From assembly GCA_020057115.1 (NCBI GenBank), contig JAGVGJ010000018.1, forward strand, positions 6,067 through 70,066: a stretch of 64,000 nucleotides of DNA, written 5' to 3'. Below, one piece after another: positions 9,326 to 54,748 of this stretch (the stretch's first letter is position 1; every line of letters starts with the position of its first letter). This DNA is from Candidatus Omnitrophota bacterium (lineage in GTDB: Bacteria; Omnitrophota; Gorgyraeia; 2-01-FULL-45-10). Under the pieces are notes generated by a model. The model had not been told where the DNA came from, made no database searches, and was given only the letters and a program-made list of their open reading frames with translations. The position numbers were made by a program, and so were the translations under genes.

Positions 9326-9419
9326 CGCGTGAAACCGAAAGCATGACTTTAATGAGTGCTCTTGGAGCGAAGCGATTTGATGCCCTCGAGGGGTGGGGTG
9401 TTCTGGAGCGACGTTGAAT

Positions 9420-9447: not shown

Positions 9448-9455
9448 CTTCCGAG

Positions 9456-9485: not shown

Positions 9486-9516
9486 GCAAGGACACTCCAC
9501 CCCGAGAGGGCTCACG

Positions 9517-15402: not shown

Positions 15403-15403
15403 G

Positions 15404-34221: not shown

Positions 34222-34998
34222 TTAATCATAATAGCTCATAAGCTTGTTCGTGAAGTCTGTTATTATATCATATCCGTCTATTTCTGTCCTTCTTAAAATG
34301 AAATTATCCGTTCCTGCCTTGTTAATGCCCTTAAAGGATGAGCAGCCTCCTATGTATCCGCTGGATCTGGCCATATCTACGACCTCATTATTCAGCCTTC
34401 CGTAAGGGTAACTAAAAGTTACCGGTTTTATGCCTGCCTTTTCGACTATCGCTTTTTTCGAACCCTCAAACTGGTGCTGCAGTCCATCCCTGTCGATTGA
34501 CGTCAGGTCCATGTGGTCGACCATGTGAGAGCCTATCTCAAAGCCCATACCCGACAGGCGCCTGATATCGTCCCAATCCATGTACTCCCTATTCCTGCCA
34601 TCGGTCCATTTTTTGCAATTCTTTCCGTCAATATTAGAGGTTGTGATGAAGAATGTCGCCTTTATGCCTCTGGTCTTTAAAGCGGGGGCGGCTTCGGTTA
34701 TATTGTCCTTATAGCCGTCGTCGAACGTCACGACAATGGCCTTCTTCGCTCTCGGCGACATGCCGCTCTTCAGAAGCTCCGAAACTGTCATCGTTTCATA
34801 TCCGATGCGGGATAGCTCATCGAGTTGGTCCCTGAAATTCGCGGCAGGGACCCTGGTCGCGAAACGATGGTCCTCGGGCCTGCCTCCGATAGAATGGTAC
34901 ATGAGTATGCGCACGCCTTCGCTCTTCGGCTTGAAAGTAAGGGTTGATCTTGCTCCGGCAATAAAGCGCTTTATATTCTTCTTTATGATAAATGTCAT
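34222..34998 (-). CDS. Polysaccharide deacetylase (CE4/NodB family)
   Basis: Carries the TFDDGY motif and an HMVDH His motif. The start was placed at the internal Met (MTFIIKK, ATG at 34998-34996), which forms an ATGA overlap with the upstream stop. The ORF track extends to 35220. Confidence 0.75.
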   Translation of the reverse strand: MTFIIKKNIKRFIAGARSTLTFKPKSEGVRILMYHSIGGRPEDHRFATRVPAANFRDQLDELSRIGYETMTVSELLKSGMSPRAKKAIVVTFDDGYKDNITEAAPALKTRGIKATFFITTSNIDGKNCKKWTDGRNREYMDWDDIRRLSGMGFEIGSHMVDHMDLTSIDRDGLQHQFEGSKKAIVEKAGIKPVTFSYPYGRLNNEVVDMARSSGYIGGCSSFKGINKAGTDNFILRRTEIDGYDIITDFTNKLMSYYD

Positions 34999-36044
34999 AA
35001 TCTCATAGTCCTGGGATATGCCGTGCACTCGACACATATGCGCGGGATCTCCTTCGAGCGGAGGGCTTTCCTGAAATCCCGGTATGCGGGGCTGTTCCAG
35101 ATATCGAAAAAATCTGACGTAAATATATTCCCGAAGTTCATAATGCCGGGGTCGGACCCCTGCAGGCAGCAGGGCGTCACGAACCCCTCCGCCGTAATAT
35201 AACAGCTCTTCCATGGCCATTTACAGGCGCGGCTCGAGGCGGGATCCGGAACATTCACGTAATCAAAAGAACCCCCCTCTCTTTCCGCGGTCTTCTTTGC
35301 CATCGCCAATATCCCTCTGACACGGGCGTAGAACGCCATTGAGTACCTGTCTCTCATGTCGCCTTTTATCTTGTCATTAGACCAGTTGTGTTCAAGCTGG
35401 GCGCATACCTTCTTCACTCCAAGGCTCTTTGAGAGCTCGATCACGTCCGGAAGGTCAGTCAGGTTTTCTCTCATCATAACGAACCATACCGAGACATCCG
35501 GCGCCGGAGACTTGCCTTTCATCTCCATGAAACGCTTGATATTCTTCTTCACCGTTTCCAGCTTCGCGCCTTTACGGATCGCTTCATACCTATCCCTGTC
35601 GGCGCTGTCTATAGAGATATTGAGCCAGTCGGCCCCGCTCTCGAGTATATTCTTTGAGCTGGCTTCGTCCAAGAGCATGGCATTTGTGGCAAAACCTATC
35701 ATGATGCCGCGGGACTTTGCATATGTGATCATATCGAAAAGCTCCGGATTCATAAGAGGCTCGCCCGCCCCGACCAGGCTCATCTTCTTTAAATGAGGCA
35801 TGCCGTCGACTATCTTCTTGAATTCTGAAAGCGACATATGTCTCTTCTTGCGGCTGCTTATCGGATTTGCGCACATGACGCATTCGAGATTACAGTGGAC
35901 GGTGGGCTCGATCTGGATCATGATGGGATATGAAGACATCGCGGAGGGCTCAAGCTTAAGGTTCAAATACGCCATAGCAAGGTTTTTCAGGTCCCCTCTT
36001 TTTAAGGACATACCAACTACTTTTAAAGCATCTCGAACATTCAT
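34995..36044 (-). CDS. Radical SAM protein with a C-terminal SPASM-like Cys-rich domain
   Basis: 349 aa with CNLECVMC (CxxxCxxC) and C-terminal cysteines (…TPCCLQGS…CVEC). Confidence 0.75.
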   Translation of the reverse strand: MNVRDALKVVGMSLKRGDLKNLAMAYLNLKLEPSAMSSYPIMIQIEPTVHCNLECVMCANPISSRKKRHMSLSEFKKIVDGMPHLKKMSLVGAGEPLMNPELFDMITYAKSRGIMIGFATNAMLLDEASSKNILESGADWLNISIDSADRDRYEAIRKGAKLETVKKNIKRFMEMKGKSPAPDVSVWFVMMRENLTDLPDVIELSKSLGVKKVCAQLEHNWSNDKIKGDMRDRYSMAFYARVRGILAMAKKTAEREGGSFDYVNVPDPASSRACKWPWKSCYITAEGFVTPCCLQGSDPGIMNFGNIFTSDFFDIWNSPAYRDFRKALRSKEIPRICVECTAYPRTMRL

Positions 36045-36865
36045 CTCTTTTTACCCCACGCTACCCAGCCGCGGTAGTTCACCACATTTATATCGCCGAA
36101 ACCGGCCCTTTCGAACCACGCCCTTGCTTCTTCTTTGTTATAGCGCATCTCTATGGGTGGAGAGAACCTGTCGTAAAGGTCCGAAACTATACAATCGAGT
36201 CTCGTTGTGTGCCTGAACGGTATCCTCTCAGCGAGCTTTTTTGTAAGCGGGATCCTTTTAAATACCTGATACGGTACGCAGCAGAATATGAAGACCAGAG
36301 GCGACATTAAGATACATAAGAGATGCAGGAGCCACGCCGGCATCTTCGTCGTGATAACCCTTAGGGAGTTGACGGTTTTCAATAAATATCTCTCAAGAGC
36401 GGTGCGCTCGGCAAAGTCTTCATATAGATAAACTATGACATAGCCGCCCTTCTTTACCTTATTGCACACGGACCTGAAAGCTTTTTCCGGTTCAGGCAAG
36501 TGGTGGAGCACCCCGAAGCTATATGCAAAATCGAATACATCGTCTCTGAAAGGGAGCTCATAGACATTCGCCTGAGTTACATGTATGCAACCGCTACATT
36601 TTGTATTCCGGCGGGTGATGGCTATAGAGTCTGATATGTCGATGCCGACCATGCGGGCGCCGTACTGCGATATATGCATCATATCGGTCCCAGAGCCACA
36701 TCCAACATCAAGGCCTATTTTGCCCTCACCGCTATAAACCCACCGCGGTATATAGTTCAGGTATGAGAACGAATCCTTATACCAGTCCCGCCCCACTTCC
36801 TTGGCGGCAAACTTCGCCCATCCGAATGAGAACTTTTTCCTGGTCTCGTTTATCATCTTATCCAT
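36041..36865 (-). CDS. Class I SAM-dependent methyltransferase
   Basis: Carries motif I LDVGCGSGTD and motif II-III FDFAYSFGVLHHL. Confidence 0.75.
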   Translation of the reverse strand: MDKMINETRKKFSFGWAKFAAKEVGRDWYKDSFSYLNYIPRWVYSGEGKIGLDVGCGSGTDMMHISQYGARMVGIDISDSIAITRRNTKCSGCIHVTQANVYELPFRDDVFDFAYSFGVLHHLPEPEKAFRSVCNKVKKGGYVIVYLYEDFAERTALERYLLKTVNSLRVITTKMPAWLLHLLCILMSPLVFIFCCVPYQVFKRIPLTKKLAERIPFRHTTRLDCIVSDLYDRFSPPIEMRYNKEEARAWFERAGFGDINVVNYRGWVAWGKKR

Positions 36866-37604
36866 TTGGCTTCTTCACTTTCATGACTAATGTCGTAAGA
36901 TACGGCCCGAGGAGCGGCAGTATGAACTTCATCTCGCCGGAACCGAAACACTTCTTTATTGGCCAGGCGCCTGCGAACTTATGATCGGCATATTCAAAAC
37001 CGCTCCTCACAAGATACCGTGAAAGCGTCCTGAAATCCCACAGGAATATATGATCGAGCTGTGTACCGGTATTACGCGGTTCGGCCTTCAGGGACTCCAC
37101 GAATTTTGCCTGGTCCTTCTTGCGCCATATGAGCAGCTGGTGGAGGATGTTTATGTAAGATACGGCGTTGGGAGTAGAGACTATGAGGCATCCCCCGGGC
37201 TTCAATATCCTGCGGAACTCGTCAAGGAACTTCGCAGGCTCATGCACATGCTCTATCGTCTCCAGGAACAGGACGCAGTCAAATGAATTGTCCGTAAACG
37301 CCATCTTAAAAAGATCGCCGGATTCAAAACTGGTGCCGCTCACCTGATTGAATGTCCTGGCTATCTCTATGGCCGAAGGGAGTATGTCGATACCAAGGAC
37401 ATCTTTGCCCTTCTCCGCTAATATCCTTGAAAGCACGCCGGCATTACAACCTACATCGAGAACCTTCTCTCCGGTCAACATATCCGCTGCCGCGCGGAAC
37501 CTGGAATCGCTTCTTGCGGTGGCAAGCGCCTTCTCCATTATCGCGGCCATCTCGTCCCCAGACTGCTTCTTCCCATCGTAAATAAATTCTTTATTATTGG
37601 ACAT
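36858..37604 (-). CDS. Class I SAM-dependent methyltransferase
   Basis: Carries LDVGCNAGVLS…FDCVLFLETIEH. The start was placed at MSNNKEF (37604), giving a 4-nt overlap with the upstream gene. The ORF track extends to 37682. Confidence 0.7.
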   Translation of the reverse strand: MSNNKEFIYDGKKQSGDEMAAIMEKALATARSDSRFRAAADMLTGEKVLDVGCNAGVLSRILAEKGKDVLGIDILPSAIEIARTFNQVSGTSFESGDLFKMAFTDNSFDCVLFLETIEHVHEPAKFLDEFRRILKPGGCLIVSTPNAVSYINILHQLLIWRKKDQAKFVESLKAEPRNTGTQLDHIFLWDFRTLSRYLVRSGFEYADHKFAGAWPIKKCFGSGEMKFILPLLGPYLTTLVMKVKKPNG

Positions 37605-37606
37605 GT

Positions 37607-38338
37607 TCACCTTCTTGTCGCCTTTATAACCACCGTGGCCCTTAAAAACGGGAATAATTTCGAAAAAATGGCGTCGATACATTTATCAAATGCTGTATCC
37701 CTAAAATAGAAACCGGATCTTCCGATATAAAAATGTAATGAATGGTCAAAACCGCTAACATGGAGAAGGGTGGCCAGAGTAGAAAGATCCCACGCGAACA
37801 GATGAGTGCCCCACTGGAGCGAAGGCTCATGTATCATAAGGCGGGGTTTTTTTCTCAATATGTCGCACATGATCTGACGGCCAAAGAAACGGGAATAATA
37901 TACGTTGTTCGTCGATAAAATAAGCGTGCCGCCGAGTTTTAGAACGCGGTATATCTCTTTAAGGGCCTTCACCGGATCATCCAGGTGCTCTATCACCTCA
38001 AGAAAACAGACGCAATCAAATTCATTATCCGCAAATTTCAGGTCCATGGCGCTCATGACATCAAATGAGAGATTGGAAGTATCCGGATATAGAGCCCTTG
38101 CCATTTCGATCAGGTTATCCTTATAATCTACGCCTATGACCGTTGAGGATGGATAGCACTCAGCAGCGGCATGGGAATAATTGCCTATATTGCAACCCAG
38201 GTCCAATATCTTTTTGCCGCTCAATTCCTTGACGATAGAATTGTGGACCGGCATATAGTTCCTCTTCTTGATAAAATATTTCAACTCGTCCAACGTAAAA
38301 TCCTTGTTCCCACCGCCTGCTATTCTATATTTTTTCAT
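37607..38338 (-). CDS. Class I SAM-dependent methyltransferase
   Basis: Carries LDLGCNIGNYS…FDCVCFLEVIEHL…GGTLILST. Confidence 0.75.
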   Translation of the reverse strand: MKKYRIAGGGNKDFTLDELKYFIKKRNYMPVHNSIVKELSGKKILDLGCNIGNYSHAAAECYPSSTVIGVDYKDNLIEMARALYPDTSNLSFDVMSAMDLKFADNEFDCVCFLEVIEHLDDPVKALKEIYRVLKLGGTLILSTNNVYYSRFFGRQIMCDILRKKPRLMIHEPSLQWGTHLFAWDLSTLATLLHVSGFDHSLHFYIGRSGFYFRDTAFDKCIDAIFSKLFPFLRATVVIKATRR

Positions 38339-39800
38339 CTATTGCCGCCCTTCTGGTGAGCATTGAACCGAACAACACGATCTCTTTGTCCGTAAAGCAC
38401 CCCGTAAGATACAGCGAAATGATATACAGCACAGCGCCCACAGGAACAAAGAAAAGGGCATTTACATTTTGAAATGTCCCCTTAAAAAGATAAAGGCCAA
38501 GGATCATGATAAATGCCGCTAATAATATTTTCGAGACAGTGCTTACCTCTACGGAAAACCTTACAAACCGCTGGCAGTAGATCAGGTTAAAAACGCTATA
38601 TCCCACAAAAGAAAGAAGAAGCGCCACCGCTGCCCCCATAGCCCCCATAGACGGTATGAGGAGAATATTCAGGATCGTGTTCACTATTGCCAGGACCAGG
38701 TATACACGCATGATGAGCACATTCTTATTGAATATCATATTTACATATTCTCCGATAACGCCTATCTGGAAGATGAATATCCCGAATAGAAGTATCGGCA
38801 GGTAGGCGCGCGTCACGAGGAACTCGGGCGTTGAAAATAGCGTCAGCAGCTCTTTTGAAAGGAATGAGATCCCGAAGACAAGCGGTATGCCAGCCACTAA
38901 AAAATACTTCAGAGAGTACCTGAGATATACGGCGGCTTCCCCTAATTCCGATCTATTTATACACCCCGAGAGAGTGGGAAATAATATATAGCCTATGGGA
39001 GTGGCTATTAACGTAACTACGTAGGCAAGAAAATATGCCACAGAATATTTTCCCACCTCTTTCAGGCCCAAAAAATAATTGATGAGGTAACGGTTGCTCC
39101 AGTTCAGGATAAAGAAGAGAAAGCTGGATATTACGAGCGGTATGCCGAATGCCGCATATTTTCTTAAGTCCAGGAATCTAGGGAAAGAAAAACCTATCAC
39201 GCGCGAGACCTGGAAGCTCCTTATCAGGACAAATAATATCCTGACCATCAAGAGGGCTACTACAGCTCCGAGAATTCCATACCCTTTTACCACTGCATAT
39301 GCTATAAAACCGAACTCCAGCAGGGTTTCTACCAGTACGGTCTTGAAATATGTCTTTATATAGCGGAAGGCTTTGAAATATTCCAAAAGTATAAGATTGA
39401 CGGACTCAAATACCAGCAGTACGGCAAGGGCGTTTGCCAGGACATAATATTGAGAGCTACCGAATATCCACGTCGATACGGTACGTGAAAATATGATACA
39501 GACGCATGCAACAACGGCGCTTGCCATGGCTGCGGCAAAGAGGCAGCTGAAGAGATCCTCCCTGATCCTGTCCTTTTTGCTCTCTCCGGCAAGGAACTTC
39601 ACGATCGCCTGGCCTGTGCCGAATGTAAGGAAAGGGACCAGCATCATAACCGTCACCCTGAGCTGCGTCCAGACCCCGTAATCAAGAGCCCCCAGCAGCT
39701 TTGTCAGGATGGGTATGACCATAAAGCTCTTAAAATTATTCAAGAGGTTTACGGCCCCGATCAAGCCGACATCCGAAACGAAATTTTTATATCTTTGCAT
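38325..39800 (-). CDS. Polysaccharide/oligosaccharide flippase (Wzx-like, MOP superfamily)
   Basis: 491 aa with about 12-14 TM helices and Wzx-type topology and length. Confidence 0.65.
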   Translation of the reverse strand: MQRYKNFVSDVGLIGAVNLLNNFKSFMVIPILTKLLGALDYGVWTQLRVTVMMLVPFLTFGTGQAIVKFLAGESKKDRIREDLFSCLFAAAMASAVVACVCIIFSRTVSTWIFGSSQYYVLANALAVLLVFESVNLILLEYFKAFRYIKTYFKTVLVETLLEFGFIAYAVVKGYGILGAVVALLMVRILFVLIRSFQVSRVIGFSFPRFLDLRKYAAFGIPLVISSFLFFILNWSNRYLINYFLGLKEVGKYSVAYFLAYVVTLIATPIGYILFPTLSGCINRSELGEAAVYLRYSLKYFLVAGIPLVFGISFLSKELLTLFSTPEFLVTRAYLPILLFGIFIFQIGVIGEYVNMIFNKNVLIMRVYLVLAIVNTILNILLIPSMGAMGAAVALLLSFVGYSVFNLIYCQRFVRFSVEVSTVSKILLAAFIMILGLYLFKGTFQNVNALFFVPVGAVLYIISLYLTGCFTDKEIVLFGSMLTRRAAIDEKI

Positions 39801-39803: not shown

Positions 39804-40499
39804 TCAAGATCTCTTCCTGGCTATTACGAAGAAATTCCTGCATCGCCTGACCATAATATCATTTTTCATCATCCAAAGGAGTATGTGCCATATGAACGGG
39901 ATCTTCTCCATTACCGCATTCGGCAAAAAGTACGGGAATGTGGGGAATGGATTGAAACCGTATATCTTTATATCGTATCCGTCTTTCAGCAGGTCATTCA
40001 ACATATCGTAATCCAGCCGGTTCGGCTTCTCAGTCCTGGATAGATAGAGCCTGTTGGGCGTAGTTATGACGAGCTCGCCGCCTCTTTTCAATATCCTCGT
40101 CGCTTCATTCAGGCATCTTAGTTTGTCTTCCATGACCGGGAACTCCAGCATGCCGAAAAGGACCACGGCATCCATGGAATCGCTCTTCGCCGGCAGGCTG
40201 AGCATATCGCCTTCAACAAGTTTCGCGGAATCACCGTTCAGCTCGCGGGCTATACGGACAGCGCGGGATGAATTATCAAGGCCTATCTTTAAGTTGCTGT
40301 CATCCATCTCGGAGAGGATTATGCCGATATTACAGCCGACGTCGAAAACCTTCTTGTTCTTCATGTTCCTGACATAGTAGAGCGCCACGAACCGCAGGTC
40401 GAGCCTGTCGCCCCACCATAGGTCCTTGGCGTGCGTCATCCATTTTGTCTTTACCCTCTCCCTGAAGGCCTTAAAATCTTTATGATTAATCTTTATCAT
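39804..40499 (-). CDS. Class I SAM-dependent methyltransferase
   Basis: Carries FDVGCNIGIILS…MDAVVLFGMLEF…GGELVITTPN. Confidence 0.7.
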   Translation of the reverse strand: MIKINHKDFKAFRERVKTKWMTHAKDLWWGDRLDLRFVALYYVRNMKNKKVFDVGCNIGIILSEMDDSNLKIGLDNSSRAVRIARELNGDSAKLVEGDMLSLPAKSDSMDAVVLFGMLEFPVMEDKLRCLNEATRILKRGGELVITTPNRLYLSRTEKPNRLDYDMLNDLLKDGYDIKIYGFNPFPTFPYFLPNAVMEKIPFIWHILLWMMKNDIMVRRCRNFFVIARKRS

Positions 40500-41518
40500 A
40501 GCTTTTTAGAGAATACCCCGTATTCGTAATAATCACCGCCCCACTTCTCCTTGAAGAACTTTATGCCTTCTTCTTCTTTAGTCTTAGGCGACGGCGAAAC
40601 GCCCGCAAGGTCAAAGTACCTGAAGCCGCTCGTCTTGGCCCATTTGATGCACTCCCACATGAGAAGATCACCGGCAGGTATCTTGCCGTCATATGCCTCT
40701 TTTGACTGGACGGGTTTTACGATATGGACCGTCTTATTGAAGCATCTGAGCGGCATATATCCTAAGGCTCCGTCATCCCTGGCTACGGAAAATATCCTGT
40801 AGCCTCCTATCGGCGAAAGCAAATCCCACATATCGAAGAACCGCTTCTTGGGTGGGACTTCGAGCTTCTTCATCCTGCCATGCTCAAGCTCGCACCTGTA
40901 ATAATCGTCTATATCTCCGCGGTGGCATTCCTTGAACTCAAGGTCTAAGGACTCGGCCTTCCTGACAGGCGTCCTGGCAACCTTCGCTTTAAGAGAATCC
41001 CATATCGCTTCAATAGGCTTAGAGAGATCGATCATGTATGTCGCCCAGACGGCCCTCTCATAACCTCTTTTTACAAATACATCCTCAAGCGCCTGCCGCG
41101 AATCTATCATAAGAGGCAATGTCACATCGTAGATCTTCTTCGCGCCCGTTCTCCTGGCGATATTCTCCGCAGCCTCGAGCATCTCCGTCAGTATCTCAGG
41201 CTGATTTTCTTCGGAATAGAATATCGGCCCCTCGCGCCATGAGGCCGCGCAGTTAAAGCGATTTATCATGTCTTTCAAGGCGTTCTTAACGGGGCTATTG
41301 TATCTCTCCGGATACAGGCCTATCCTGTGGAATGCGAGCGACGCTATCCGCCGAGCGCCTTCGTCTTCGGCTACGATCCTGCATGGCCGAGCGCGATAAT
41401 AGCGCTCCACGAAAGAGCCATATGACACTGTCTGTTGAAGCGTCGAATAAGGCTGTCCGGACAGGTTCTCGTCCCAGCCCTCGAGAGACTTTTCATCCAA
41501 TATGCGTATCTTCATCAA
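40496..41518 (-). CDS. FemAB-family (GNAT-fold) aminoacyl- or acyltransferase
   Basis: 340 aa with a two-lobed GNAT-like architecture. The family assignment is tentative and was made by eye. Confidence 0.45.
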   Translation of the reverse strand: MMKIRILDEKSLEGWDENLSGQPYSTLQQTVSYGSFVERYYRARPCRIVAEDEGARRIASLAFHRIGLYPERYNSPVKNALKDMINRFNCAASWREGPIFYSEENQPEILTEMLEAAENIARRTGAKKIYDVTLPLMIDSRQALEDVFVKRGYERAVWATYMIDLSKPIEAIWDSLKAKVARTPVRKAESLDLEFKECHRGDIDDYYRCELEHGRMKKLEVPPKKRFFDMWDLLSPIGGYRIFSVARDDGALGYMPLRCFNKTVHIVKPVQSKEAYDGKIPAGDLLMWECIKWAKTSGFRYFDLAGVSPSPKTKEEEGIKFFKEKWGGDYYEYGVFSKKL

Positions 41519-43173
41519 TCCAAATAACCCAGGTTCTTGAGCCTATCCATGATCTTGGCCTGTTCATCCGGAACGGCCCTCTCATCCTTTATGGCGCCCG
41601 ACGCTTCGGAATACCTGACCTTGTTCGAGGCCCTGAACTCATCCGTGAATATCTCTTCGAGCGGCCTTCCGTCCATATCAGACGGCACCGCCAGGCCCAT
41701 TGCGTAAAGTATGGTCGGCGCGATATCCTGTATCGCCGGGATCCGCAGCTTCCCGGACCTTTTGATCGATCTTCCGCGGCTCAAGAATATGCCCTTCCTT
41801 TCATGATGTGAAAATAGCGCGTTCTCAAAGACCTGCGGCCGCCTCAATCCCCTGTTCAGGGACGGCATATATTCCACATCCAGCTCTATGACGATATCCG
41901 GCATCTCCGGAAGATATTCCCCTTTATATATCTCTTCCTTTTTCCAGGCATTCTTGATGACATGCTTTCCGCTCTTCGGATCTGTTGCGGCCTTAAGCTT
42001 AGCAATGATCTCGTCCCTTGTATCTTCGTAAGCGCCCGAAGAGACTATCCCGCCGGGTTCGCGGCCGGATAGATTTATGTATATGCCGCCGAAATTTCCG
42101 GCTATATCGATATACGGGAAGGCCGTCGTCCTGGCGAAGTCATAGATCATATCATCGCTCAAGTAGGTCTCGTCGCGCTTGGCGCCTTTCATGGGTCTCA
42201 GGAACGGCGCTAGGCGCTTCAGCCAGGGAGCATTCTCCATCGCCCATCTCATTGCGAGGAATACTGTCTTCCTGGACATGCCCGCGATCGCCGATCCGGA
42301 CGACCTGTCTATTTCGGCAAGTTCTTCTCCGAGTTTCGCGCGAAGGCCTTCTTTTATCGCTTCCCCGGACTTGAACGAGAGATATCCGGCCTCCGCCAGC
42401 CATGCGTCTATGCAGAAAGCCTTGCGGTATGTTTTGTGCCCATGGTCAGAATATATGATAACGCATGATACCTCTCCGATATTATGCATGAATTTATTGA
42501 GCGCCTTGTCCGCGCGCTCGTATAAAGGCTCTATGATGGAGAGATCCACGTTCATGAATACATGGTGCGCCTGCTCCAGCTGCTCTATGCCTATGCAAAG
42601 CAGGTCCCATTCGCGTGTCCTTGCGATATCAAGGGCTGATACCAACCTCTTCTCTACGGAGAGGGCGAGGCTCTCAATGTTCCTGCCGTCATGGCAGGCG
42701 AACTCATACTTGATGCCATCCACCACCTCCGGAGCAATCTCGGGAGGATATATCGCTTTTTTGACATCAGTCGTAAAATGGCAGCCGAGCATGATGCCGT
42801 TCATCTTTCGTACTGGATAGGTGAACGGCATGCCTATGACGATGGACCTCTTGCCGCTGTCACCCGCTATCTCCCACACGTCCCTAGACATCCTGTTATC
42901 GGCATTCACGCCGAACCAGCTGTAGCGGCCCTTGAGCCTTTTGAAGAAACCGTATAATCCCGTCTTGCCGGGATTCTTGCCTGTGTATGAACATGACCAT
43001 GCGACAGGTGTGGTCGGCGGAATGGATGATTCGAACGGGCTTGCCGAGCCTTCTTCGACCAGCTTTTTAAATGCCGGCAATTTACCCTTACCGATAAGCT
43101 CGTTAAGATAATCCCACGAAACTCCGTCGACGCCTATTATGACCACCTTATTTACATTCGTTCTTGCTGTCAT
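41515..43173 (-). CDS. Alkaline-phosphatase superfamily protein (type I phosphodiesterase/nucleotide pyrophosphatase family)
   Basis: 552 aa. The N-terminus VVIIGVDGVSWDYL…PPTTPVAWSCSYTG carries a metal-ligand Thr/Ser nucleophile, and IIYSDHGH supplies the second metal site. Confidence 0.7.
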   Translation of the reverse strand: MTARTNVNKVVIIGVDGVSWDYLNELIGKGKLPAFKKLVEEGSASPFESSIPPTTPVAWSCSYTGKNPGKTGLYGFFKRLKGRYSWFGVNADNRMSRDVWEIAGDSGKRSIVIGMPFTYPVRKMNGIMLGCHFTTDVKKAIYPPEIAPEVVDGIKYEFACHDGRNIESLALSVEKRLVSALDIARTREWDLLCIGIEQLEQAHHVFMNVDLSIIEPLYERADKALNKFMHNIGEVSCVIIYSDHGHKTYRKAFCIDAWLAEAGYLSFKSGEAIKEGLRAKLGEELAEIDRSSGSAIAGMSRKTVFLAMRWAMENAPWLKRLAPFLRPMKGAKRDETYLSDDMIYDFARTTAFPYIDIAGNFGGIYINLSGREPGGIVSSGAYEDTRDEIIAKLKAATDPKSGKHVIKNAWKKEEIYKGEYLPEMPDIVIELDVEYMPSLNRGLRRPQVFENALFSHHERKGIFLSRGRSIKRSGKLRIPAIQDIAPTILYAMGLAVPSDMDGRPLEEIFTDEFRASNKVRYSEASGAIKDERAVPDEQAKIMDRLKNLGYLD

Positions 43174-44468
43174 GCATTACCGCCGAAGTGCGCCATTATG
43201 GCGTGAAAAGGGTCCTGTATGGCCCTTACGCCCGATATGTCCAGGTTCACTGCCGCGCAGAAGGCGTCATCAAAAGTATGCATGCCGTCCAGCGCCGTCC
43301 TTTCAAATATCTTATTGCCGCCTGCCTTAGCCTTAAGGTCATAGCCGTCGCGCGGATGGGCTATGATATCGGCCGCGCTTTCGAGACACGGCCCATCGTA
43401 TATCTCTTCTCTGAAGAATACTCTCTCGATGACCTTCTCGCCCGTCGCATCATCCTTTAACGCCATAAGTCTCGTCGTGATATCATTGCGGACCTTGTCG
43501 TAATCGCACTTTCTGACAGACCCCTTCTCCTCCCTGCCTTCAAGGTTCACGAATATCCTTCCCGGTATCAAGGAATATGCAATGCTTGCAGCATCATAAT
43601 TCTCTATCTTCTTTTCCGCGGAAGGGATGAATTTCAAAAGACCCTCTTTCTCAAGCCAGGCATTGATCTGCACCTCGCTCTTTATGCCGCAAAAACCATG
43701 GTCCGACAGTATTAAGAGCCCATCGTCGTTGGAGAGCTTCTCTTTTAACTGCCCTATAAAGCCGTCGAGCCTGGCGAAGAAACGCCTGGTAAAATCATTG
43801 TACGGCCCTTTCTCAAGGGCACTGTAAAAGAAATGGAACAGCCTGTCCGTCTCCATTATATGCAGTTGGAAAAGATCCCACGGCTCTTTATCCATGAGAT
43901 CGAACGCCACTTCAAAACGCTTTTCAAGGGCAAGCATTATCTGGTCGGCGAACTTCTCCTTCGACTCCCGCGCAAGCCAGGCGTCAACGTCTATTATATA
44001 GCCCCTGGACTTAAGATAAGCGCCAAGGCTCGAAGGATAGGCTGCCTTGTCTATGTCCGTACATAGAAAATCCGATATCAGTATGCCGTTCACCTTTTCA
44101 GGAGGATAAGTGAGCGGCACGTTTATCACTATGACCTTCTTGCCGAGCGACGACAATTCGCCCCACAAAGTCTTCGCTTTCCTGTCCCCGGCGATCGGTA
44201 TCTTTATCCTGAAAGGGTTGGGATCTCTGTCGACAAAACCGAGGATACCGTGGATGCCGGGATTCTCGCCTGTCATGTAACTGGCCCATGCGACGGACGA
44301 CACTGTAGGATATGCGGAATTGATACGCTTAAATGCGCCCTTTGAGGCTATCGACTTTAGCGAAGCGAGCTCGCCGCGCTTAAACCTTTCTTCCAGGAAT
44401 GAATGAGAGAGGCCGTCGAGCCCCAGCACAAATATACGCTTCCCGCTCCGGGCAGGCATGGATATCAA
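43170..44468 (-). CDS. Alkaline-phosphatase superfamily protein (type I phosphodiesterase family), paralog
   Basis: 432 aa carrying IFVLGLDGLSHSFL…YPTVSSVAWASYMTG…LILSDHGF. Confidence 0.7.
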   Translation of the reverse strand: MISMPARSGKRIFVLGLDGLSHSFLEERFKRGELASLKSIASKGAFKRINSAYPTVSSVAWASYMTGENPGIHGILGFVDRDPNPFRIKIPIAGDRKAKTLWGELSSLGKKVIVINVPLTYPPEKVNGILISDFLCTDIDKAAYPSSLGAYLKSRGYIIDVDAWLARESKEKFADQIMLALEKRFEVAFDLMDKEPWDLFQLHIMETDRLFHFFYSALEKGPYNDFTRRFFARLDGFIGQLKEKLSNDDGLLILSDHGFCGIKSEVQINAWLEKEGLLKFIPSAEKKIENYDAASIAYSLIPGRIFVNLEGREEKGSVRKCDYDKVRNDITTRLMALKDDATGEKVIERVFFREEIYDGPCLESAADIIAHPRDGYDLKAKAGGNKIFERTALDGMHTFDDAFCAAVNLDISGVRAIQDPFHAIMAHFGGNA

Positions 44469-45724
44469 ACCCCGTCTTCGGCTGTGCCGGTTATTATTCC
44501 TCCGGCACAGATGTTGCCCGAGCGCGACAATACGAACCTTCCGAGGTTCTCGAGCTCGTTAAAAGAAGTAACTACGACCGGTTTTTTGGTCTTTACCGTT
44601 ATCTCGGCCGCTTCCAGATAAGAGAGGGAGTCGGAATCTTTTTCGATGACCTCGAGCGTAGATGAATTTATCCTTCGCGATATCTTTTCGATCCTGCAGC
44701 TTACCTCCTGGGTGGCGCACCTGAATGCCATCTTCTCTTCTTTGGAGAACGGCTGTTTCGACAACCAGAAGAGGTCCGCCTTGAAACGATCGACCACCAT
44801 GGGCGTTCTGCCGGTCTCGGATATTATATCTCCCCTGTCGATGAATATAGGCGTCGTGGTAGTTATGCCTATACATTCCGAAGCGGAAGCCTTCACGGGT
44901 TCCTCGAGGAACTTCTCTATGCTCTTGACATGGGTAACCTGACCGCTTGGCAATGCCTTGACTTCCTGGCCCTCGGATATCCTGCCTGATTCTATCCTGC
45001 CTGCATATATCCTTTTTTCGCCGATTTTGTATATATCCTGGATCGGAAAGACCAGCGACTTTTCGCTCTCGCTCGGGGTGGCAGGCAATGAATCGAGGGC
45101 TTCCATGATCGTGGGGCCATGATACCAGGTCATAAAACCTGATTGAGACGTTATGTTATCCCCTTTCAAGGCGACTATGGGCACGAATAACCGCGGCTTT
45201 ATATTTATGCCTGCAAGGAACTTCTCGGCCTCGACCTTTACGGAATTGAATTTCTTTTCATCGTATCCGACGAGATCCATCTTATTCAATACGGCTATGA
45301 CGTTCTTTATGCCGAGCATCGAGACGAGGTACGCGTGGCGCTTGGTCTGCTCCTGCATGCCTTCGGCAGCGTCTATGATAAGCAGCGCCGCCTCGGCCTG
45401 GGAAGCGCCGGTCATCATGTTCTTCACGAACTCGACGTGTCCCGGAGCGTCGATGATGACGTAATCCCGCTTTGAGCTCCTGAAGAAAACCTGCGTTGTA
45501 TCGATCGTGATACCCTGCTTGCGCTCTTCTTCGAGATGGTCCAAAAGATGCGCGAACTCCGTCTCCCTCCCCAGCCCCTCCGCAGCCTGGCGTATCTCGT
45601 CCAGCTTGTCCGGAGGCAGGGACTGCGTATCATACAGAAGCCTTCCTATAAAAGTCGACTTTCCGTGGTCGACGTGGCCCACTATCACGAACTTTAGTTG
45701 CTTGTTTGTCATGATTGTTTCCAT
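44465..45724 (-). CDS. cysN: Sulfate adenylyltransferase subunit 1 (GTPase)
   Basis: Carries GHVDHGKSTFIGRLL, DxPGH, NKMDLV and RxxxxLGIKxxxVAxNKMDLV, a CysN-type pattern. It sits immediately downstream of cysD. Confidence 0.8.
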   Translation of the reverse strand: METIMTNKQLKFVIVGHVDHGKSTFIGRLLYDTQSLPPDKLDEIRQAAEGLGRETEFAHLLDHLEEERKQGITIDTTQVFFRSSKRDYVIIDAPGHVEFVKNMMTGASQAEAALLIIDAAEGMQEQTKRHAYLVSMLGIKNVIAVLNKMDLVGYDEKKFNSVKVEAEKFLAGINIKPRLFVPIVALKGDNITSQSGFMTWYHGPTIMEALDSLPATPSESEKSLVFPIQDIYKIGEKRIYAGRIESGRISEGQEVKALPSGQVTHVKSIEKFLEEPVKASASECIGITTTTPIFIDRGDIISETGRTPMVVDRFKADLFWLSKQPFSKEEKMAFRCATQEVSCRIEKISRRINSSTLEVIEKDSDSLSYLEAAEITVKTKKPVVVTSFNELENLGRFVLSRSGNICAGGIITGTAEDGV

Positions 45725-46524
45725 TACATATACCCCAGGGATCTTAGTTTCTGCATCATATAAGCCGACTCTTTATCCTGCGCCCTGCCGCTACGCTCCG
45801 ATATCTTCGATACCTTCAATTCCTCAACTATCTTTTCGATCGTGTCGGCTTCCGAATCAACTGGATTACAACATGTCTCGCATCCTATGGACCGGAAGCG
45901 CTTGCCGTTCTTCGCGAAATAAAGGCTCACGATCGGTATCTTCTCTCTCTTTATATATTCCCAGATATCGAGTTCGCGCCAGCCAAGGAGCGGATGGACG
46001 CGGAAATGTTCTTCCTGTTCTGTCTTATTCTTGTACTGGTCCCATATCTCAGGCGGCTGCTCCTTATAATTCCACTCAAAATCCTCGTCGCGCGGAGAGA
46101 ATACGCGTTCTTTTGCCCTTATGCCATGTTCATCGCGGCGTATGCCGAGATAGAGCGCCTTGAATTTATATTTCGCGACTACGGCTTTCAGGGCATTGGT
46201 CTTGAGCTCCGTGCAGCACTCAAGCTTGCCTGTGTTAGGGCTCACGCCGCGGTCGATCGCGGCCTGGTTCTTATAGACGATGAGGTTTAAATCCCATTTC
46301 TTCGCGTATTCATCCCTGTAAGAATATATCTCTTTAAACTTGTAACCTGTATCCAGATGCAGCACGGGAAAAGGCATATTGCCGTAAAAGGCCTTTCTCA
46401 GAAGCCATAAAAGGGTGGTTGAATCCTTCCCTATGGACCAGAGCATGGCTATGTCCTTAAACTGCCTGTAGGCCTCTCTTATGATATATATGCTCTGATT
46501 TTCAAGGTCATTCAGATTTTTCAT
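45724..46524 (-). CDS. cysD: Sulfate adenylyltransferase subunit 2 (PAPS-reductase-like ATP pyrophosphatase fold)
   Basis: Carries the LWSIGKDSTT P-loop variant and is adjacent to cysN. Confidence 0.8.
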   Translation of the reverse strand: MKNLNDLENQSIYIIREAYRQFKDIAMLWSIGKDSTTLLWLLRKAFYGNMPFPVLHLDTGYKFKEIYSYRDEYAKKWDLNLIVYKNQAAIDRGVSPNTGKLECCTELKTNALKAVVAKYKFKALYLGIRRDEHGIRAKERVFSPRDEDFEWNYKEQPPEIWDQYKNKTEQEEHFRVHPLLGWRELDIWEYIKREKIPIVSLYFAKNGKRFRSIGCETCCNPVDSEADTIEKIVEELKVSKISERSGRAQDKESAYMMQKLRSLGYM

Positions 46525-48415
46525 TATCTATTCTTCTCCCTTCAAAAAATATCTTGCGCCATATATTATAACAATAAACGGTCCATAAGATATTAAAATT
46601 GTCGGCTTTGCCTGATACCTGCATATCCCACAGGCGCCTGACAGAAGCCATGTCAAAATACCCCTCTTTATCCCAGTCATCCTTAAACAGATCCGCCTCC
46701 ACCCTCTTTCTCCACACAGTTGAAAACCAGCTGCGCAGAGGGATCGTCTCGCCATATCCGTACTTTTTTCGATTTAAGACGCCTGACGGTAATATCGGCT
46801 TGGAGAGGCGCTTCAATATATACTTTCGGTTTACTCCGTTTATCTTCATCCAGACAGGCAGTGCCATGGCAAACTCGACTATGTGATGGTCCAGGAACGG
46901 CGATCTTAACTCAAGACCGTTAGCCATTCCGGATATATCCGAAAATACGCATATGCCGTGAGTGTCATTGAAGACGAGGTCGGTAAACAAAGTTCCGTCA
47001 AGAAGATGGTCCGGCTTCATCCTGGAATATATCTCCTCGAAAGGCGCGCCGATATCGCAACCGGAGATCCGGTTCTTTAAGTTTTTGGAATAGACCAGGT
47101 TTGCCATATTATCCGCTGCTTTCCTTTTGAAATAAGCCCTCTTCTCTCCGGGCGGAAGGGTCAATGCCTTGAGCACGGATGACGAAAACCTCTCACCCAA
47201 AAAACCCAGGGCAGGAAAGATGGCGGCTCTGGCGGCCTTGTTTTTTGAAAAAAATATATCCATGTCGCCCAGTATCTTCCATAGAAGATATCCCGAGTAG
47301 CCCGCGAAGAGCTCATCAGAGCCGTCTCCGGTGAGCGCAGCCTTTACGCCCTTTTTCACTTCCCGGCAGAACTTCATATTGACCATGGCCTCCGGGATAG
47401 CAAAAGGTTCGTCATAATGCCACACGACACGGCCCAGCTCGTCGATGATATTGGAATCGGCGGTTATCTTATGGTGTTCCATGTTGTAGCGCTCGGCAAC
47501 GCTTGCGGCATATCCGAATTCTTTATCTTTTGATGACGAGTCTTCGAATCCGACCGAGAAGGCATTCAGCCTCGTAGAGGTGTTCTTGGCTATGAACGAT
47601 GCTATCAGGCTCGAGTCAACGCCGCCGGAAAGGAACGCACCGACGGGCACATCGCTTATAAGGCGCATCCTGACAGACTCATCTATGAGCGACTGCAATC
47701 TCTCTACCGCTTCGCCTATGCCCATGGAAAGCTTATCGTTCATTTCCGGCTGCCAGTATCTGCTTATATGCTCGCGTCCATCCTTCACCACCATGACGGA
47801 AGCGGGTGGCAATTTTAATATATTCTTGAACATCGTATTCGGGTAAGGAACGCTCCTATGCGAAAATAGATAATGCACTCCGGCCGGATTGACTTCGGGC
47901 TTGACAGCGCCTGACGCAAGAATAGCTTTAGGCTCGGATGCGAAAAGGAACATGTCTCCTACCCGGGAATAGACCAGCGGCTTCTGTCCTATCCTGTCAC
48001 GCGCCAGGACTAGCTCCTTCTTCCTTGAGTCCCAGATGGCAAAGGCGAACATTCCCCTCAGGTGCTTTACGCAATCCTGCCCCACCTCTTCATAAAGATG
48101 GATGATGGCCTCGGTATCGGAAGCGCTCTTAAAGTGATGGCCCTTTTGCTTCAGGGCGCGGGCAAGTTCTTTGTAATTATATATCATCCCGTTGAAGACA
48201 AGCTTTATGGAGCCGTCTTCATTAGACATGGGCTGGCTGGCATTATTTGAAAGATCTATTATGGAAAGCCGCCTGTGCCCAAGGCCGACGCCCTTATCCG
48301 CAAAGATACCTTCCCCGTCCGGCCCGCGATGGGCAAGCGCGCTCGTCATCCTTTTAAGCGCGGCGGCGTCCAGTCCAGAAACGCCGCTTGATATAAACCC
48401 GCAGATGCCGCACAT
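46508..48415 (-). CDS. asnB: Asparagine synthase (glutamine-hydrolysing) family amidotransferase
   Basis: MCGI N-terminal nucleophile, RGPDGEG, and SGGVDSS PP-loop. Confidence 0.85.
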   Translation of the reverse strand: MCGICGFISSGVSGLDAAALKRMTSALAHRGPDGEGIFADKGVGLGHRRLSIIDLSNNASQPMSNEDGSIKLVFNGMIYNYKELARALKQKGHHFKSASDTEAIIHLYEEVGQDCVKHLRGMFAFAIWDSRKKELVLARDRIGQKPLVYSRVGDMFLFASEPKAILASGAVKPEVNPAGVHYLFSHRSVPYPNTMFKNILKLPPASVMVVKDGREHISRYWQPEMNDKLSMGIGEAVERLQSLIDESVRMRLISDVPVGAFLSGGVDSSLIASFIAKNTSTRLNAFSVGFEDSSSKDKEFGYAASVAERYNMEHHKITADSNIIDELGRVVWHYDEPFAIPEAMVNMKFCREVKKGVKAALTGDGSDELFAGYSGYLLWKILGDMDIFFSKNKAARAAIFPALGFLGERFSSSVLKALTLPPGEKRAYFKRKAADNMANLVYSKNLKNRISGCDIGAPFEEIYSRMKPDHLLDGTLFTDLVFNDTHGICVFSDISGMANGLELRSPFLDHHIVEFAMALPVWMKINGVNRKYILKRLSKPILPSGVLNRKKYGYGETIPLRSWFSTVWRKRVEADLFKDDWDKEGYFDMASVRRLWDMQVSGKADNFNILWTVYCYNIWRKIFFEGRRIDNEKSE

Positions 48416-49963
48416 TTACCTATCCGCTCCTTCCTTCTTCCAGAACAGGAGTTTTGAAAATGCCCTCTTCATGATATTCAGATACTTGATGCCCCTCATC
48501 GCAAGCTGCCATTCATACGGAAATATCCAGAAATTCAGGGCGAGTCTGGCTCGCGCCATAAATGCATATATCTTGCGCTTCAGGTCCATATTCTTCATGA
48601 AATCATAATTCAGCGCCGCTGGGACATAAGTGCTGAGCGCCGTAACGAGCGCCGGCTCTTTTATCCATGGATAGCTCTTCATGGAAAGCTGCCCGAATTT
48701 TCCGGTCTCTTGATTGGCCCAGCCCTCCAGGGTAGTGGGCGATCTATAGCCGTTCTCTGCGCAAAGGTCATAGAGACTGCCTCCGGGATACGGGCGCAGT
48801 ATCTGCGGGCCTGAGAACATCGAGCGCGGGCATATCTTCTTCAATCTCTTCATGAGATCGATGGTCTTCTGCATCTCTTCCCTTGTCTCTCCGGGAATTC
48901 CTATAACGAAAGAGTAAGACGCAACGATATTGAAGGCGTTCATGTCTTCCGCTGTTTTGATTATCTGGTCCACGGTTATGTCCTTGCATATGAGCTTCAA
49001 TATGCGCTCTGAACCCGACTCGGCGCCCACCCCGAGGTACGCGGCCCCAGCGTCAGCTGAATCTTTCAAGAGATCTCTCGATACATGCTTATCGTGGAAA
49101 TAATCAGCGCGGATATTGGCAAACCAGCGTATCCCCATCCCCCTCATGCCGTCTATCACGCCCTTAGCATGCTTGGGATTCACATAGAAGTTCTCATCCC
49201 TGAAACTTATTCCGTTCAGGTTATGCCTGTCTTTAAGGTCCCGGATCTCGTCTAAGACAAGGCTCGGGCTCTTTGAACGCCAGATATTATAGTTGCGCTC
49301 GACATAATTTATGCAGAAGGCGCACCTGTGCGGACAGCCGCGGCTGGTCTGGACCAGTAGCTCACGGCGCAGACCCACAAAAGGATAGTAGGCGTTCACA
49401 TACCTTTCTACGTCAAGGAGTTCGAATGCCTGCGGAGGCACATCGTCCATCTTCATGAGCTCGCGCCTCTTGTTTATTACAGGCTTGCCTCCCGACTTAA
49501 AACCGAGCCCTTTTATGTCGGAATAATCCGCGCGTCCTTCCGAGCCTTCCGCGCGAGAGGCCAGTTCATAAGCGGTTACGTCGCCTTCACCGATAACGAT
49601 GAAGTCCACAAGATCGCTTGCGAGCGTCTGCTCCGGAAAAAGGGTCGGGTGCACCCCGCCCCATACGATCTTGACATCTTTATACTTCGACCTTATATAT
49701 GCGGAAAGCCTTAATGCCTCTTTTATCTGGGCCGTCATGACTGACAATCCGACGAGTCTGGCGCTGCCTATACCGGCATCTATCTTTTCAAATATGCTCT
49801 GGGCTTTATAAAGGCGCGCATCTATGATAGTGACATCCATGCCTTTATGCTTTAGATACGTTCCGATGGCAAGTATAGCCATTGGAGCGCCAAAGTCTAC
49901 TTTAGAGGCTTCGACATATGGGTTTGGATCCGGGTTTATCAGAAGAACTTTCGGCCGTTTCAT
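48416..49963 (-). CDS. B12-binding (class B) radical SAM enzyme
   Basis: 515 aa with an N-terminal B12-binding-like domain and a CPHRCAFC motif. Confidence 0.8.
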   Translation of the reverse strand: MKRPKVLLINPDPNPYVEASKVDFGAPMAILAIGTYLKHKGMDVTIIDARLYKAQSIFEKIDAGIGSARLVGLSVMTAQIKEALRLSAYIRSKYKDVKIVWGGVHPTLFPEQTLASDLVDFIVIGEGDVTAYELASRAEGSEGRADYSDIKGLGFKSGGKPVINKRRELMKMDDVPPQAFELLDVERYVNAYYPFVGLRRELLVQTSRGCPHRCAFCINYVERNYNIWRSKSPSLVLDEIRDLKDRHNLNGISFRDENFYVNPKHAKGVIDGMRGMGIRWFANIRADYFHDKHVSRDLLKDSADAGAAYLGVGAESGSERILKLICKDITVDQIIKTAEDMNAFNIVASYSFVIGIPGETREEMQKTIDLMKRLKKICPRSMFSGPQILRPYPGGSLYDLCAENGYRSPTTLEGWANQETGKFGQLSMKSYPWIKEPALVTALSTYVPAALNYDFMKNMDLKRKIYAFMARARLALNFWIFPYEWQLAMRGIKYLNIMKRAFSKLLFWKKEGADR

Positions 49964-54005: not shown

Positions 54006-54748
54006 CTTCGCCTTATGCCCAACTCTATCCTGCCGAATATAAGCTTATCGGTGAATATGCTTATCAATGTTATGGTTATCATTACGGCTATCACCTGGCT
54101 CATGTCGTTAAGCTCCCTTCCCATGGCAAGCAGGTATCCGAGGCCCAGATTGAGGAATAGCAGCTCTCCTGCCATAAGCGAGCGCCAGGCGAACGACCAG
54201 CCCTGCTTCAAGCCGGATATTATCGGCGGCATGGCAGCCGGCATGATGACCTCTATCAAGAGCCTGAACCTTCTGGCGCCCATGTTCCTTCCTGCCTTTA
54301 CATAGAGCTGCGGCAGGTTCTTGACCGCCGAGTAAGTGGCCATGGTTACCGAGAACAATGCTCCGATTATCACTATGAATATTATAGCCTTTTCATTGAG
54401 CCCGAACCATAATAAAGCAAGAGGCAGCCAGCATATGCTCGGCAATGTCTGCAATCCCAGGACCAGCCCGCCCAGCGTATCCTCGACCGTCTTGAACTTG
54501 CTCATAACAAGCCCAAGCAACCCGCCTAGGACTATTGATATGCCGTATCCTATCAATAAGCGCCTCATGCTTATTATTATGCCGAAGATGAACGTGGTGT
54601 CCATGAAACCATGGACTAGCGTATCAAATACTTTCAGTGGCGACGGAAACAGGTATGGCGGCCATATTTTGAGCATGGCCACGATCTGCCACAGCGCCAG
54701 TATCGCAGAATAGAATATTATCTGTTTAACTGTCTTCTTTTGTATCAT
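53993..54748 (-). CDS. ABC transporter permease (NitT/TauT family, SsuC/TauC-like)
   Basis: 251 aa with six TM helices and a binding-protein-dependent permease EAA-like loop. Confidence 0.75.
   Translation of the reverse strand: MIQKKTVKQIIFYSAILALWQIVAMLKIWPPYLFPSPLKVFDTLVHGFMDTTFIFGIIISMRRLLIGYGISIVLGGLLGLVMSKFKTVEDTLGGLVLGLQTLPSICWLPLALLWFGLNEKAIIFIVIIGALFSVTMATYSAVKNLPQLYVKAGRNMGARRFRLLIEVIMPAAMPPIISGLKQGWSFAWRSLMAGELLFLNLGLGYLLAMGRELNDMSQVIAVMITITLISIFTDKLIFGRIELGIRRRWGP

Follow-up and report, generated by a model that had tools for sequence, protein, structure and literature searches.

Dedicated copies of cysDN or nodPQ in glycan-modification loci are already known. In the rhizobial system of NodP-NodQ and NodH, which sulfates Nod factors, a dedicated copy of ATP sulfurylase likewise lies in a glycoconjugate tailoring cluster, NodQ has an adenosine 5'-phosphosulfate (APS) kinase domain, and NodH is a canonical sulfotransferase using 3'-phosphoadenosine 5'-phosphosulfate (PAPS). 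The cluster described here lies in a 64-kb stretch of Candidatus Omnitrophota contig JAGVGJ010000018.1 (the whole stretch of 64,000 nucleotides is called the window) and has instead a kinase-free CysN and, next to it, two enzymes of the alkaline phosphatase (AP) superfamily, which we call B and A, in the order cysD-cysN-B-A (Table 1). The cyanobacterial synechan (xss) cluster and other clusters for sulfated exopolysaccharides (EPS) are of the Wzx/Wzy type like the window, and their polymers are sulfated; these clusters use canonical sulfotransferases, and none is present among the minus-strand open reading frames (ORFs) of the window.

Other described systems share single features with this locus. 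Pseudomonas AtsA with AtsRBC combines an AP-superfamily enzyme acting on sulfate esters with an SsuA-like transporter, but that system is catabolic and its enzyme is a formylglycine (FGly)-dependent PF00884 protein, whereas the window has PF01663 Ser/Thr enzymes in a biosynthetic operon and a transporter that is not conserved. In the O-methyl phosphoramidate pathway of Campylobacter jejuni (Cj1415-Cj1418), homologs of sulfate-activation enzymes are re-used to make a PAPS-like donor for capsule decoration; this pathway depends on a glutamine kinase and a cytidylyltransferase, neither of which is present in the window, and the genes studied here include bona fide CysDN or Sat. The NPP/PhnA/PafA branch (PF01663) has the same fold, six metal ligands and Ser/Thr nucleophile as A and B, which differ from it in sequence (identity <=16%), in being cytoplasmic, in lying in glycan or tailoring operons, in their linkage to sulfate activation and, in the case of A, in a docking-like tail. 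In Haloferax volcanii, genetics has shown that Agl7 is required when the dolichol-phosphate-bound hexose of a lipid-linked glycan is sulfated, and the protein is not described as a canonical sulfotransferase (PMC3892788); haloarchaea produce sulfated N-glycans, and in a mutant lacking agl7 (HVO_2046) the lipid-linked glycan is left unsulfated (PMC3892788). The papers searched name no protein family for Agl7, and its membership of COG3379, the family of A and B, is a lead only and not evidence.

Sulfated glycoconjugates have a wide distribution that takes in environmental biofilms, granular sludge and archaeal S-layers, and previous work on EPS suggested that sulfated EPS is widespread and that known sulfotransferases are seldom detected (PMC10483923). 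The B family is large and uncharacterised, and its consistent position after CysDN, Sat or APS kinase would close this sulfotransferase gap. What is new in the window and its relatives is that a specific AP-superfamily clade consistently stands in place of APS kinase plus canonical sulfotransferase, that this clade is tied to three kinds of sulfate-activating enzyme in Bacteria and Archaea, and that one tail is common to five protein families of these systems; in the literature searched and in NCBIfam, we found no description of such a pairing of AP fold and sulfate activation or of AP-superfamily sulfotransferases. Judging from sequence and gene order, we are on balance inclined to regard these genes as a cassette complete in itself, whose AP-fold enzymes would use up APS or PAPS to sulfate a glycan.

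The sulfate-activating pair CysD and CysN

Every sizeable minus-strand ORF of the window was scanned with Pfam, and the key proteins were compared with the curated models of NCBIfam. The original prediction had placed cysDN and two PF01663 genes side by side, and indeed all four are located at 41515-46524 on the minus strand with their domain identities confirmed; its observation that the window has no APS kinase (PF01583) and no sulfotransferase family was also borne out by the Pfam scan of the minus-strand ORFs.

CysD is of a short form, which scored 353.5 bits with PRK05253 (cutoff 195), 273.2 with TIGR02039 (cutoff 396.6) and 274 with PRK12563 (cutoff 413). It aligns with 1zun_A, the only solved CysD, in two blocks with about 30 residues deleted, and it falls under the two equivalog cutoffs because of this deletion. 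The search returned thousands of CysD matches, and the best 120 were 263-275 aa long with 74-89% identity and included Calderihabitans (Firmicutes), Omnitrophota, WOR-3 and Thermoproteota. By these matches, the short CysD is a member of a very large cross-phylum clade, whose 266-aa proteins are 75-89% identical to it, and no degenerate oddity. The cysD and cysN genes overlap by 1 nt at 45724, and the short CysD was paired with CysN in the relatives examined, with one gene intervening in loci L173 and L174.

CysN scored 348.7 bits with TIGR02034 (cutoff 336.1), EF-1alpha models stayed under their cutoffs, and the G motifs GHVDHGKST, DAPGH and NKMD are present. Neither Pfam nor NCBIfam detected a PF01583 APS-kinase domain in CysN, and the protein stops at residue 419, unlike the NodQ type. 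From their family membership it follows that CysD-CysN should form APS from sulfate, ATP and GTP.

Conserved linkage of B to sulfate activation

Seven short-CysD homologs on long contigs were sampled blind to their gene context: L085 (the closest relative; the rest of its operon is syntenic with the window), L086 (Calderihabitans maritimus), L087 (Omnitrophota), L088, L171, L172 and L173, metagenome-derived contigs included. The order CysD-CysN-B was found in all seven, which come from different phyla (B of 418-430 aa), with TauE between CysD and CysN in L173. A further locus, L001, reads A-CysD-CysN up to the contig end. In the reverse test, metagenomes were scanned with a five-sequence B alignment and the neighbours were typed by tblastn, which gave 50 informative loci with B identity >=41%. 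Immediately upstream of B, 20 of these loci had CysN and 22 had an APS-kinase homolog; two more had an APS kinase elsewhere in the locus, and six had neither partner. Many of the kinase-type loci had the order Sat-A'-APSK-B (A' of about 460 aa; APSK, APS kinase), and Sat was found in at least 8 of them. More distant B homologs (37-40% identity) were located directly behind Sat, a non-homologous ATP sulfurylase (PF01747 + PUA_2) whose QTRN, HRGH and GRDHAG motifs are intact. B-like proteins at 32-36% identity had unrelated neighbours such as MatE, the LPG-synthase C-terminal domain and UvrD.

B thus occurs with three sulfate-activating gene sets, whose partners are non-homologous and have the same output, and this is therefore strong evidence that B acts on or with APS or PAPS. 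Viewed across these sequences, the adjacency of CysDN and B is no chance event, and a placement of cysDN in the window merely as housekeeping genes is unlikely, being disfavoured by the conserved synteny. An APS-dependent modification carried out by the adjacent PF01663 enzymes, as the original prediction had proposed, is strongly supported by comparative synteny, while the sulfonated (C-S) product that it had offered as an alternative to a sulfated one has no pointer in its favour. One could also suppose mere adjacency, with the PF01663 enzymes performing phosphodiester chemistry unrelated to sulfate (on phosphoglycerol, phosphocholine or nucleotides) and CysDN supplying PAPS to distant genes. 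The large A-type family, most members of which have no sulfate-activation gene within 10 kb, would agree with this, but the linkage of B to activating genes (44/50 close homologs and 7/7 short-CysD samples), together with the shared tail described below, is beyond chance, and we find this explanation hardly credible.

The presence of bona fide Sat with intact sulfate and ATP motifs beside B also bears on the possibility that the substrate is not sulfate. The CysDN-like pair might adenylylate a look-alike such as phosphoramidate, and the AP-fold enzymes might then transfer a phosphoryl group, followed by methylation, as the Campylobacter O-methyl-phosphoramidate precedent with its Cj1415 kinase, an APS-kinase homolog, would suggest; two-metal AP-fold sites are best suited to phosphoryl transfer, an AsnB amidotransferase gene directly precedes cysD, and at least seven class-I SAM methyltransferases occur in the window. 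Nevertheless, this is very improbable: besides the pairing with Sat, conservation of the short CysD across phyla reaches 75-89% and its model scores are those of a CysD, several modules have sulfur-anion transporters within them, and no glutamine-kinase (PPDK_N-type) or Cj1417-like gene was found in the window by Pfam.

Search for a conventional sulfotransferase

Neither canonical sulfotransferases (PF00685, PF13469, PF03567 and related families) nor a PF00884 sulfatase were found by Pfam in the minus-strand ORFs of the window, and the Pfam lists of 10 relatives (L001, L003, L085-L088, L171-L174) also had no sulfotransferase family. Among the 126 neighbour proteins of 14 B loci, no sulfotransferase was present within the 25 commonest families, which included radical SAM, Wzt-type ABC, GT4, PIG-L, carbamoyltransferase, methyltransferases and ATP sulfurylase. 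Only one unannotated gene recurs upstream of cysD: it immediately precedes cysD in both L171 and L088 (Table 1), and its products, 273-280 aa long and 56% identical to each other, had no Pfam match even at E <= 1. We considered this protein as a cryptic conserved sulfotransferase and rejected it: by inspection it is hydrophobic and membrane-like, and it is confined to these two loci.

The AP-superfamily proteins B and A

In B, residues D15, S54, D205, H209, D253, H254 and H394 are invariant in 33 homologs, and they correspond to the complete two-metal ligand set and the Ser nucleophile of the NPP/PhnA branch; the region of the nucleophile reads PTVSS. The residue register was set by the PhnA alignment, in which 3szy (wild type) and 3t02 (variant) differ only opposite Ser54. 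The AlphaFold (AF2) model of B has a pLDDT of 92.5 and its nearest folds are PhnA and NPP (TM-score about 0.65, identity <=16%), and the sequence search of solved structures matched B with PhnA alone (1.7e-05). The B profile found 4,574 clusters (50% identity) at E <= 1e-30. When rosetta-stone fusions were sought, the long B-like representatives were tandem PF01663 proteins or TPR fusions, and none was fused to APSK, CysN or Sat. The start of B is more probably the ATG at 44459, giving 429 aa, which would leave a 5-nt gap after cysN and not an overlap.

A and B are paralogs with 25% identity. In the A alignment (A1), D16, S242-D243-H244-G245 and H457 are invariant, and the ligand D/H pair of the A family (TDxxQH) is E199/H203 (EQAHH) in the subclade of the window, where Glu replaces one Asp. 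The AF2 model of A has a pLDDT of 83 and was grouped by Foldseek with ENPP6, PhnA and NPP, and nothing matched A in the sequence search of solved structures. The nearest relatives of A (37-38% identity) adjoin CysD-CysN, as in L001.

For both proteins, Foldseek matches were limited to PhnA, bacterial NPP and ENPP1/2/3/5/6/7 (TM-score about 0.5-0.7, or 0.64-0.72 when normalised to the target; identity <=16%). No curated NCBIfam family matched A or B, and the PhnA and PafA models gave 21-27 bits against cutoffs of 407-650. With such scores against the PhnA equivalog cutoff of 407, neither A nor B is therefore a PhnA ortholog. Both proteins match PF01663 and not PF00884, they have no C/S-x-P-x-R FGly motif at PPTTP (A) or PTVSS (B), and they have no signal peptide or membrane segment, each opening with the strand that bears the metal-binding Asp. 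The JGI annotation of both is "predicted AlkP superfamily phosphohydrolase/phosphomutase", which we take to be the name of COG3379. Taken together, the alignments and models indicate that A and B are intact and probably active as enzymes, and that they belong to a separate clade of the AP superfamily that is uncharacterised.

The shared C-terminal tail

CysD and A end in the same motif, RLxxLGY[LIM], and among the 247 window ORFs of >=80 aa these two alone have such an ending. L545, G549 and Y550 of A are invariant in 20 A-type homologs. In all loci collected, which were all found via A, B or CysD so that statements on co-occurrence are biased, 166 of 4,403 ORFs had the motif, at least 159 of them in or beside cassette-associated families. 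The carriers were 97/156 A-type proteins, 26/29 CysD and 22/34 APS kinases (nearly all APS kinases once the GWGYL variant is admitted), and the tail was also present on PF00884 proteins and on small membrane proteins (DUF2061) that adjoin the module; the motif was never found on B. The canonical CysD of P. syringae (1zun_A) ends in KKRQGYF, and the motif therefore probably derived from the CysD tail and was copied to other families. The model of A closes with a flexible acidic linker, a short amphipathic helix and, at the C-terminus, an aromatic residue, all at low AF2 confidence, and in this model the tail of A looks like a docking peptide, for which a CysN pocket, the COG3379 core or another site could be the receptor.

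Further examples of the tail are given in Table 1. Among them, divergent orphan CysD-like PP-loop proteins (281-323 aa) without an adjacent CysN carry it in L137 and L170; that of L137 is 28% identical to the CysD of the window and adjoins Sat.

Host clusters of the cassette

Wzx-type glycan operons host the cassette in the window, L085, L086, L087 and L173. In L172, its neighbours are genes for LpxD, LpxI, Kdo kinase and heptosyltransferase, and an A-type gene is lacking there; L087 has several A paralogs in one cluster. In L174, from a gut Clostridium (Dorea sp. per NCBI; Logan SRR11195290), the order is A-CysD-(AlkZ-related)-CysN-B within a natural-product-like cluster of ketosynthase, carbamoyltransferases, AMP-binding enzyme, PIG-L, radical SAM, DHQ-II and aminotransferase; this cluster was also found on a human-gut-metagenome contig (L108). 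Such a setting hints that a human-gut bacterium makes a small molecule or glycolipid that is sulfated. With host clusters so varied, the cassette behaves as would be expected of a tailoring module that brings activation and transfer together, and since B is present even without A, we argue that B is the core APS consumer.

Among 72,556 plasmids searched with B by tblastn, 62 records matched, and nearly all of these were haloarchaeal. Plasmid pHALXA01 of Halopiger xanaduensis (L170) has three GT4 genes, two PF00884 genes, an A-like gene, a CysD-like gene, a PiT-type anion transporter gene and a B-like gene, and a B-like gene of Natrinema adjoins an inorganic diphosphatase gene. Sulfur-anion transporters were found in or beside the modules, with TauE between cysD and cysN in L173, two Sulf_transp genes in L171, and TauE in L137.

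Proposed mechanism

We infer that B and A have APS as their substrate, that a sulfuryl and not a phosphoryl or adenylyl group is transferred, and that the acceptor and the tail have the parts described as follows. CysD-CysN would provide APS, and B, a cytoplasmic enzyme filling the operon slot usual for APS kinase, would strip APS, or PAPS where a kinase is part of the module, of its sulfuryl group, probably via a covalent sulfo-Ser54, and would hand this group to the hydroxyl of a sugar in the lipid-linked repeat unit on the cytoplasmic face before flipping. A, with its Thr nucleophile, would be a second transferase with a different acceptor and would be recruited by its tail, and the RLxxLGY[LIM] tails on CysD and A would dock the enzymes into one complex, with channelling of APS.

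Several points weigh against this sulfuryl-transfer cassette. Classically, AP-superfamily sites with two metals and a Ser or Thr catalyse phosphoryl transfer, and known NPPs attack the phosphorus, not the sulfur, of phosphosulfate nucleotides. No column of B is differentially conserved between proteins beside CysN and proteins beside APSK, and therefore no adaptation to the 3'-phosphate of PAPS is visible. Some kinase-type modules sit among housekeeping genes and not glycan genes (L102). In 79 genome loci with A-type genes, APS kinase was present in only 6, and one had a 33%-identical PAPS-reductase-family (CysD-like) match.

Some of these points would suit a helper role, in which B (perhaps also A and A') is a hydrolase, either a pyrophosphatase pulling ATP sulfurylase or a phosphatase of 3'-phosphoadenosine 5'-phosphate (PAP) or APS, and the true sulfotransferase is unrecognised or lies elsewhere. 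Hydrolysis of phosphoanhydrides and phosphomonoesters is the natural chemistry of the fold, all three architectures combine B with an ATP sulfurylase (CysDN or Sat), which makes pyrophosphate, the order Sat-A'-APSK-B fits one helper for each step, and the diphosphatase gene of Natrinema, the lack of partner-specific residues in B and the non-glycan setting of some kinase-type modules are in line with it. We consider it unlikely nonetheless: cells already have a housekeeping pyrophosphatase and the GTP hydrolysis of CysN already drives the reaction, PAP cannot form in the kinase-free CysD-CysN-B and Sat-B modules, every tailoring cluster would be left without a transferase, and the multiple A paralogs of L087 and the tail on A would be unexplained.

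The cassette reading can be extended further. It is conceivable, though we would stop short of calling it probable, that the COG3379 proteins B and A form a sulfotransferase class unrelated to all known ones, that APS is used directly without APS kinase in CysD-CysN-B and Sat-B, and that the tail assembles a complex with CysD, APS kinase, PF00884 and DUF2061 proteins. In its boldest version, which takes as its model the C-terminal cysteine tail of CysH, a homologous PAPS reductase, the invariant tail tyrosine might even act as a swinging sulfo-carrier. If the cassette works as we propose, it would be a genome marker for sulfated envelopes and metabolites, including those of human-gut Clostridia (L174), it could reveal sulfation straight from APS, and its AP-fold enzymes could become tools for PAPS-free synthesis of sulfated polysaccharides; the shared tail is a testable handle on the physical organisation of the pathway.

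The operon and other genes of the window

The window is almost wholly a single minus-strand run of envelope-glycan genes, with the operon order asnB, cysD, cysN, B, A, FemAB-like, methyltransferase and Wzx. From the AsnB-type gene through the FemAB-like gene, gene ends overlap by 1-17 nt, and the genes therefore form a single translationally coupled operon. The AsnB-type protein scored 512 bits with TIGR03108, under the cutoff of that model, and L085 and L001 also have its gene upstream. This enzyme probably tailors the same glycan as the cassette. FemAB-like genes recur beside A- or B-type genes in L003 and L085, and these neighbours may be responsible for an aminoacyl decoration of the same glycan. 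A Wzx gene is likewise adjacent in L001, L085 and L086, which indicates that the modified unit is assembled on the cytoplasmic face and exported afterwards.

Table 1. Positions of the features in the window and in related loci
Sequence	Feature	Position	Strand	Characteristics
Window	CysD, short form, sulfate adenylyltransferase catalytic subunit	45724-46524	-	266 aa; PF01507 6.8e-43; PP-loop SIGKDST
Window	CysD C-terminal tail	45727-45774	-	KESAYMMQKLRSLGYM
Window	CysN, GTPase subunit	44465-45724	-	419 aa; GTP_EFTU 2.4e-48 + GTP-eEF1A_C
Window	B, COG3379/PF01663	43170-44468	-	432 aa as listed; PF01663 3.8e-31
Window	A, COG3379/PF01663	41515-43173	-	552 aa; PF01663 1.2e-36; Thr nucleophile in PPTTP
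Window	A C-terminal tail	41518-41571	-	PDEQAKIMDRLKNLGYLD; end of A, DEQAKIMDRLKNLGYLD
Window	AsnB-type glutamine amidotransferase	46508-48415	-	Asn_synthase 5.3e-79; overlaps cysD by 17 nt
Window	FemAB/Acetyltransf_6-like	40496-41518	-	PF13480 7.8e-08; directly downstream of A, 4-nt overlap
Window	Wzx-type flippase	38325-39800	-	Polysacc_synt 7.6e-23
Window	SsuA-family ABC importer	53993-56554	-	binding protein 55529-56554; ATPase 54726-55532 (ABC_tran); permease 53993-54748 (BPD_transp_1)
Window	Porin	56582-58012		
Window	B12-binding radical SAM	15886-17271		
Window	B12-binding radical SAM	17986-19410		
Window	B12-binding radical SAM	48416-49963		
Window	B12-binding radical SAM	59915-61393		
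Window	Class-I SAM methyltransferase	19407-20039		
Window	Class-I SAM methyltransferase	36041-38338		
Window	Class-I SAM methyltransferase	39804-40499		
Window	rSAM/SPASM enzyme	34995-36044		
Window	Polysaccharide deacetylase	34222-35220		
Window	GalT/HIT-superfamily paralog	870-1880		
Window	GalT/HIT-superfamily paralog	1886-2920		
L174	A-CysD-(AlkZ-related)-CysN-B	4677-10272		
L171	Unannotated gene upstream of cysD	7154-7975		
L088	Unannotated gene upstream of cysD	9108-9950		
L003	FemAB/Acetyltransf_6-like	11705-12880		
L003	FemAB/Acetyltransf_6-like	18262-19392		
L085	FemAB/Acetyltransf_6-like	14548-15615		
L102	Tail carrier	6274-6876		
L001	Tail carrier	6786-8228		
L086	Tail carrier	9668-9973		
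L170	Tail carrier	4065-5348		
L170	Tail carrier, orphan CysD-like	6712-7683		
L137	Tail carrier, orphan CysD-like	2171-3016		

The binding protein of the ABC importer scored 225.5 bits with TIGR01728 (SsuA family; cutoff 163.5), and the permease and ATPase genes are adjacent to its gene. The importer and the porin are inserted among glycosyltransferase genes about 8 kb from the cassette. The original prediction had counted this transporter among its pointers to a sulfated or sulfonated envelope component, but the gene set is absent from the otherwise syntenic L085 and from the other loci, and we rejected it as a part of the module. This absence also speaks against sulfur scavenging, where A and B would serve as cytoplasmic sulfatases on organosulfates imported by an SsuA/AtsR-like ABC system and CysDN would be the housekeeping activator, located here for supply or by chance. 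The SsuA-family transporter and porin of the window, the AtsA/AtsRBC precedent and the recurrence of PF00884 proteins in related loci would fit such a role, which we regard as very unlikely, given that no cysH, sulfite reductase or cysK is present in the Pfam lists of the examined loci, that the PAPS_reduct proteins found there are CysD-like with the tail and have no ECGLH motif, that the module is translationally coupled within glycan or tailoring operons across phyla, and that A and B have no FGly motif or FGly-maturing logic.

The four B12-binding radical SAM genes, at least five class-I SAM methyltransferase genes (three of them listed in Table 1) and one rSAM/SPASM gene of the glycan cluster suggest a glycan unusually rich in C- and O-methylation. 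As listed, the ORFs of the polysaccharide deacetylase and the rSAM/SPASM enzyme share 226 nt, and the true start of the deacetylase is probably downstream of the first in-frame ATG. At the edge of the window, the tandem GalT/HIT-superfamily paralogs matched GalP_UDP_transf, DUF4921 and DUF4931.

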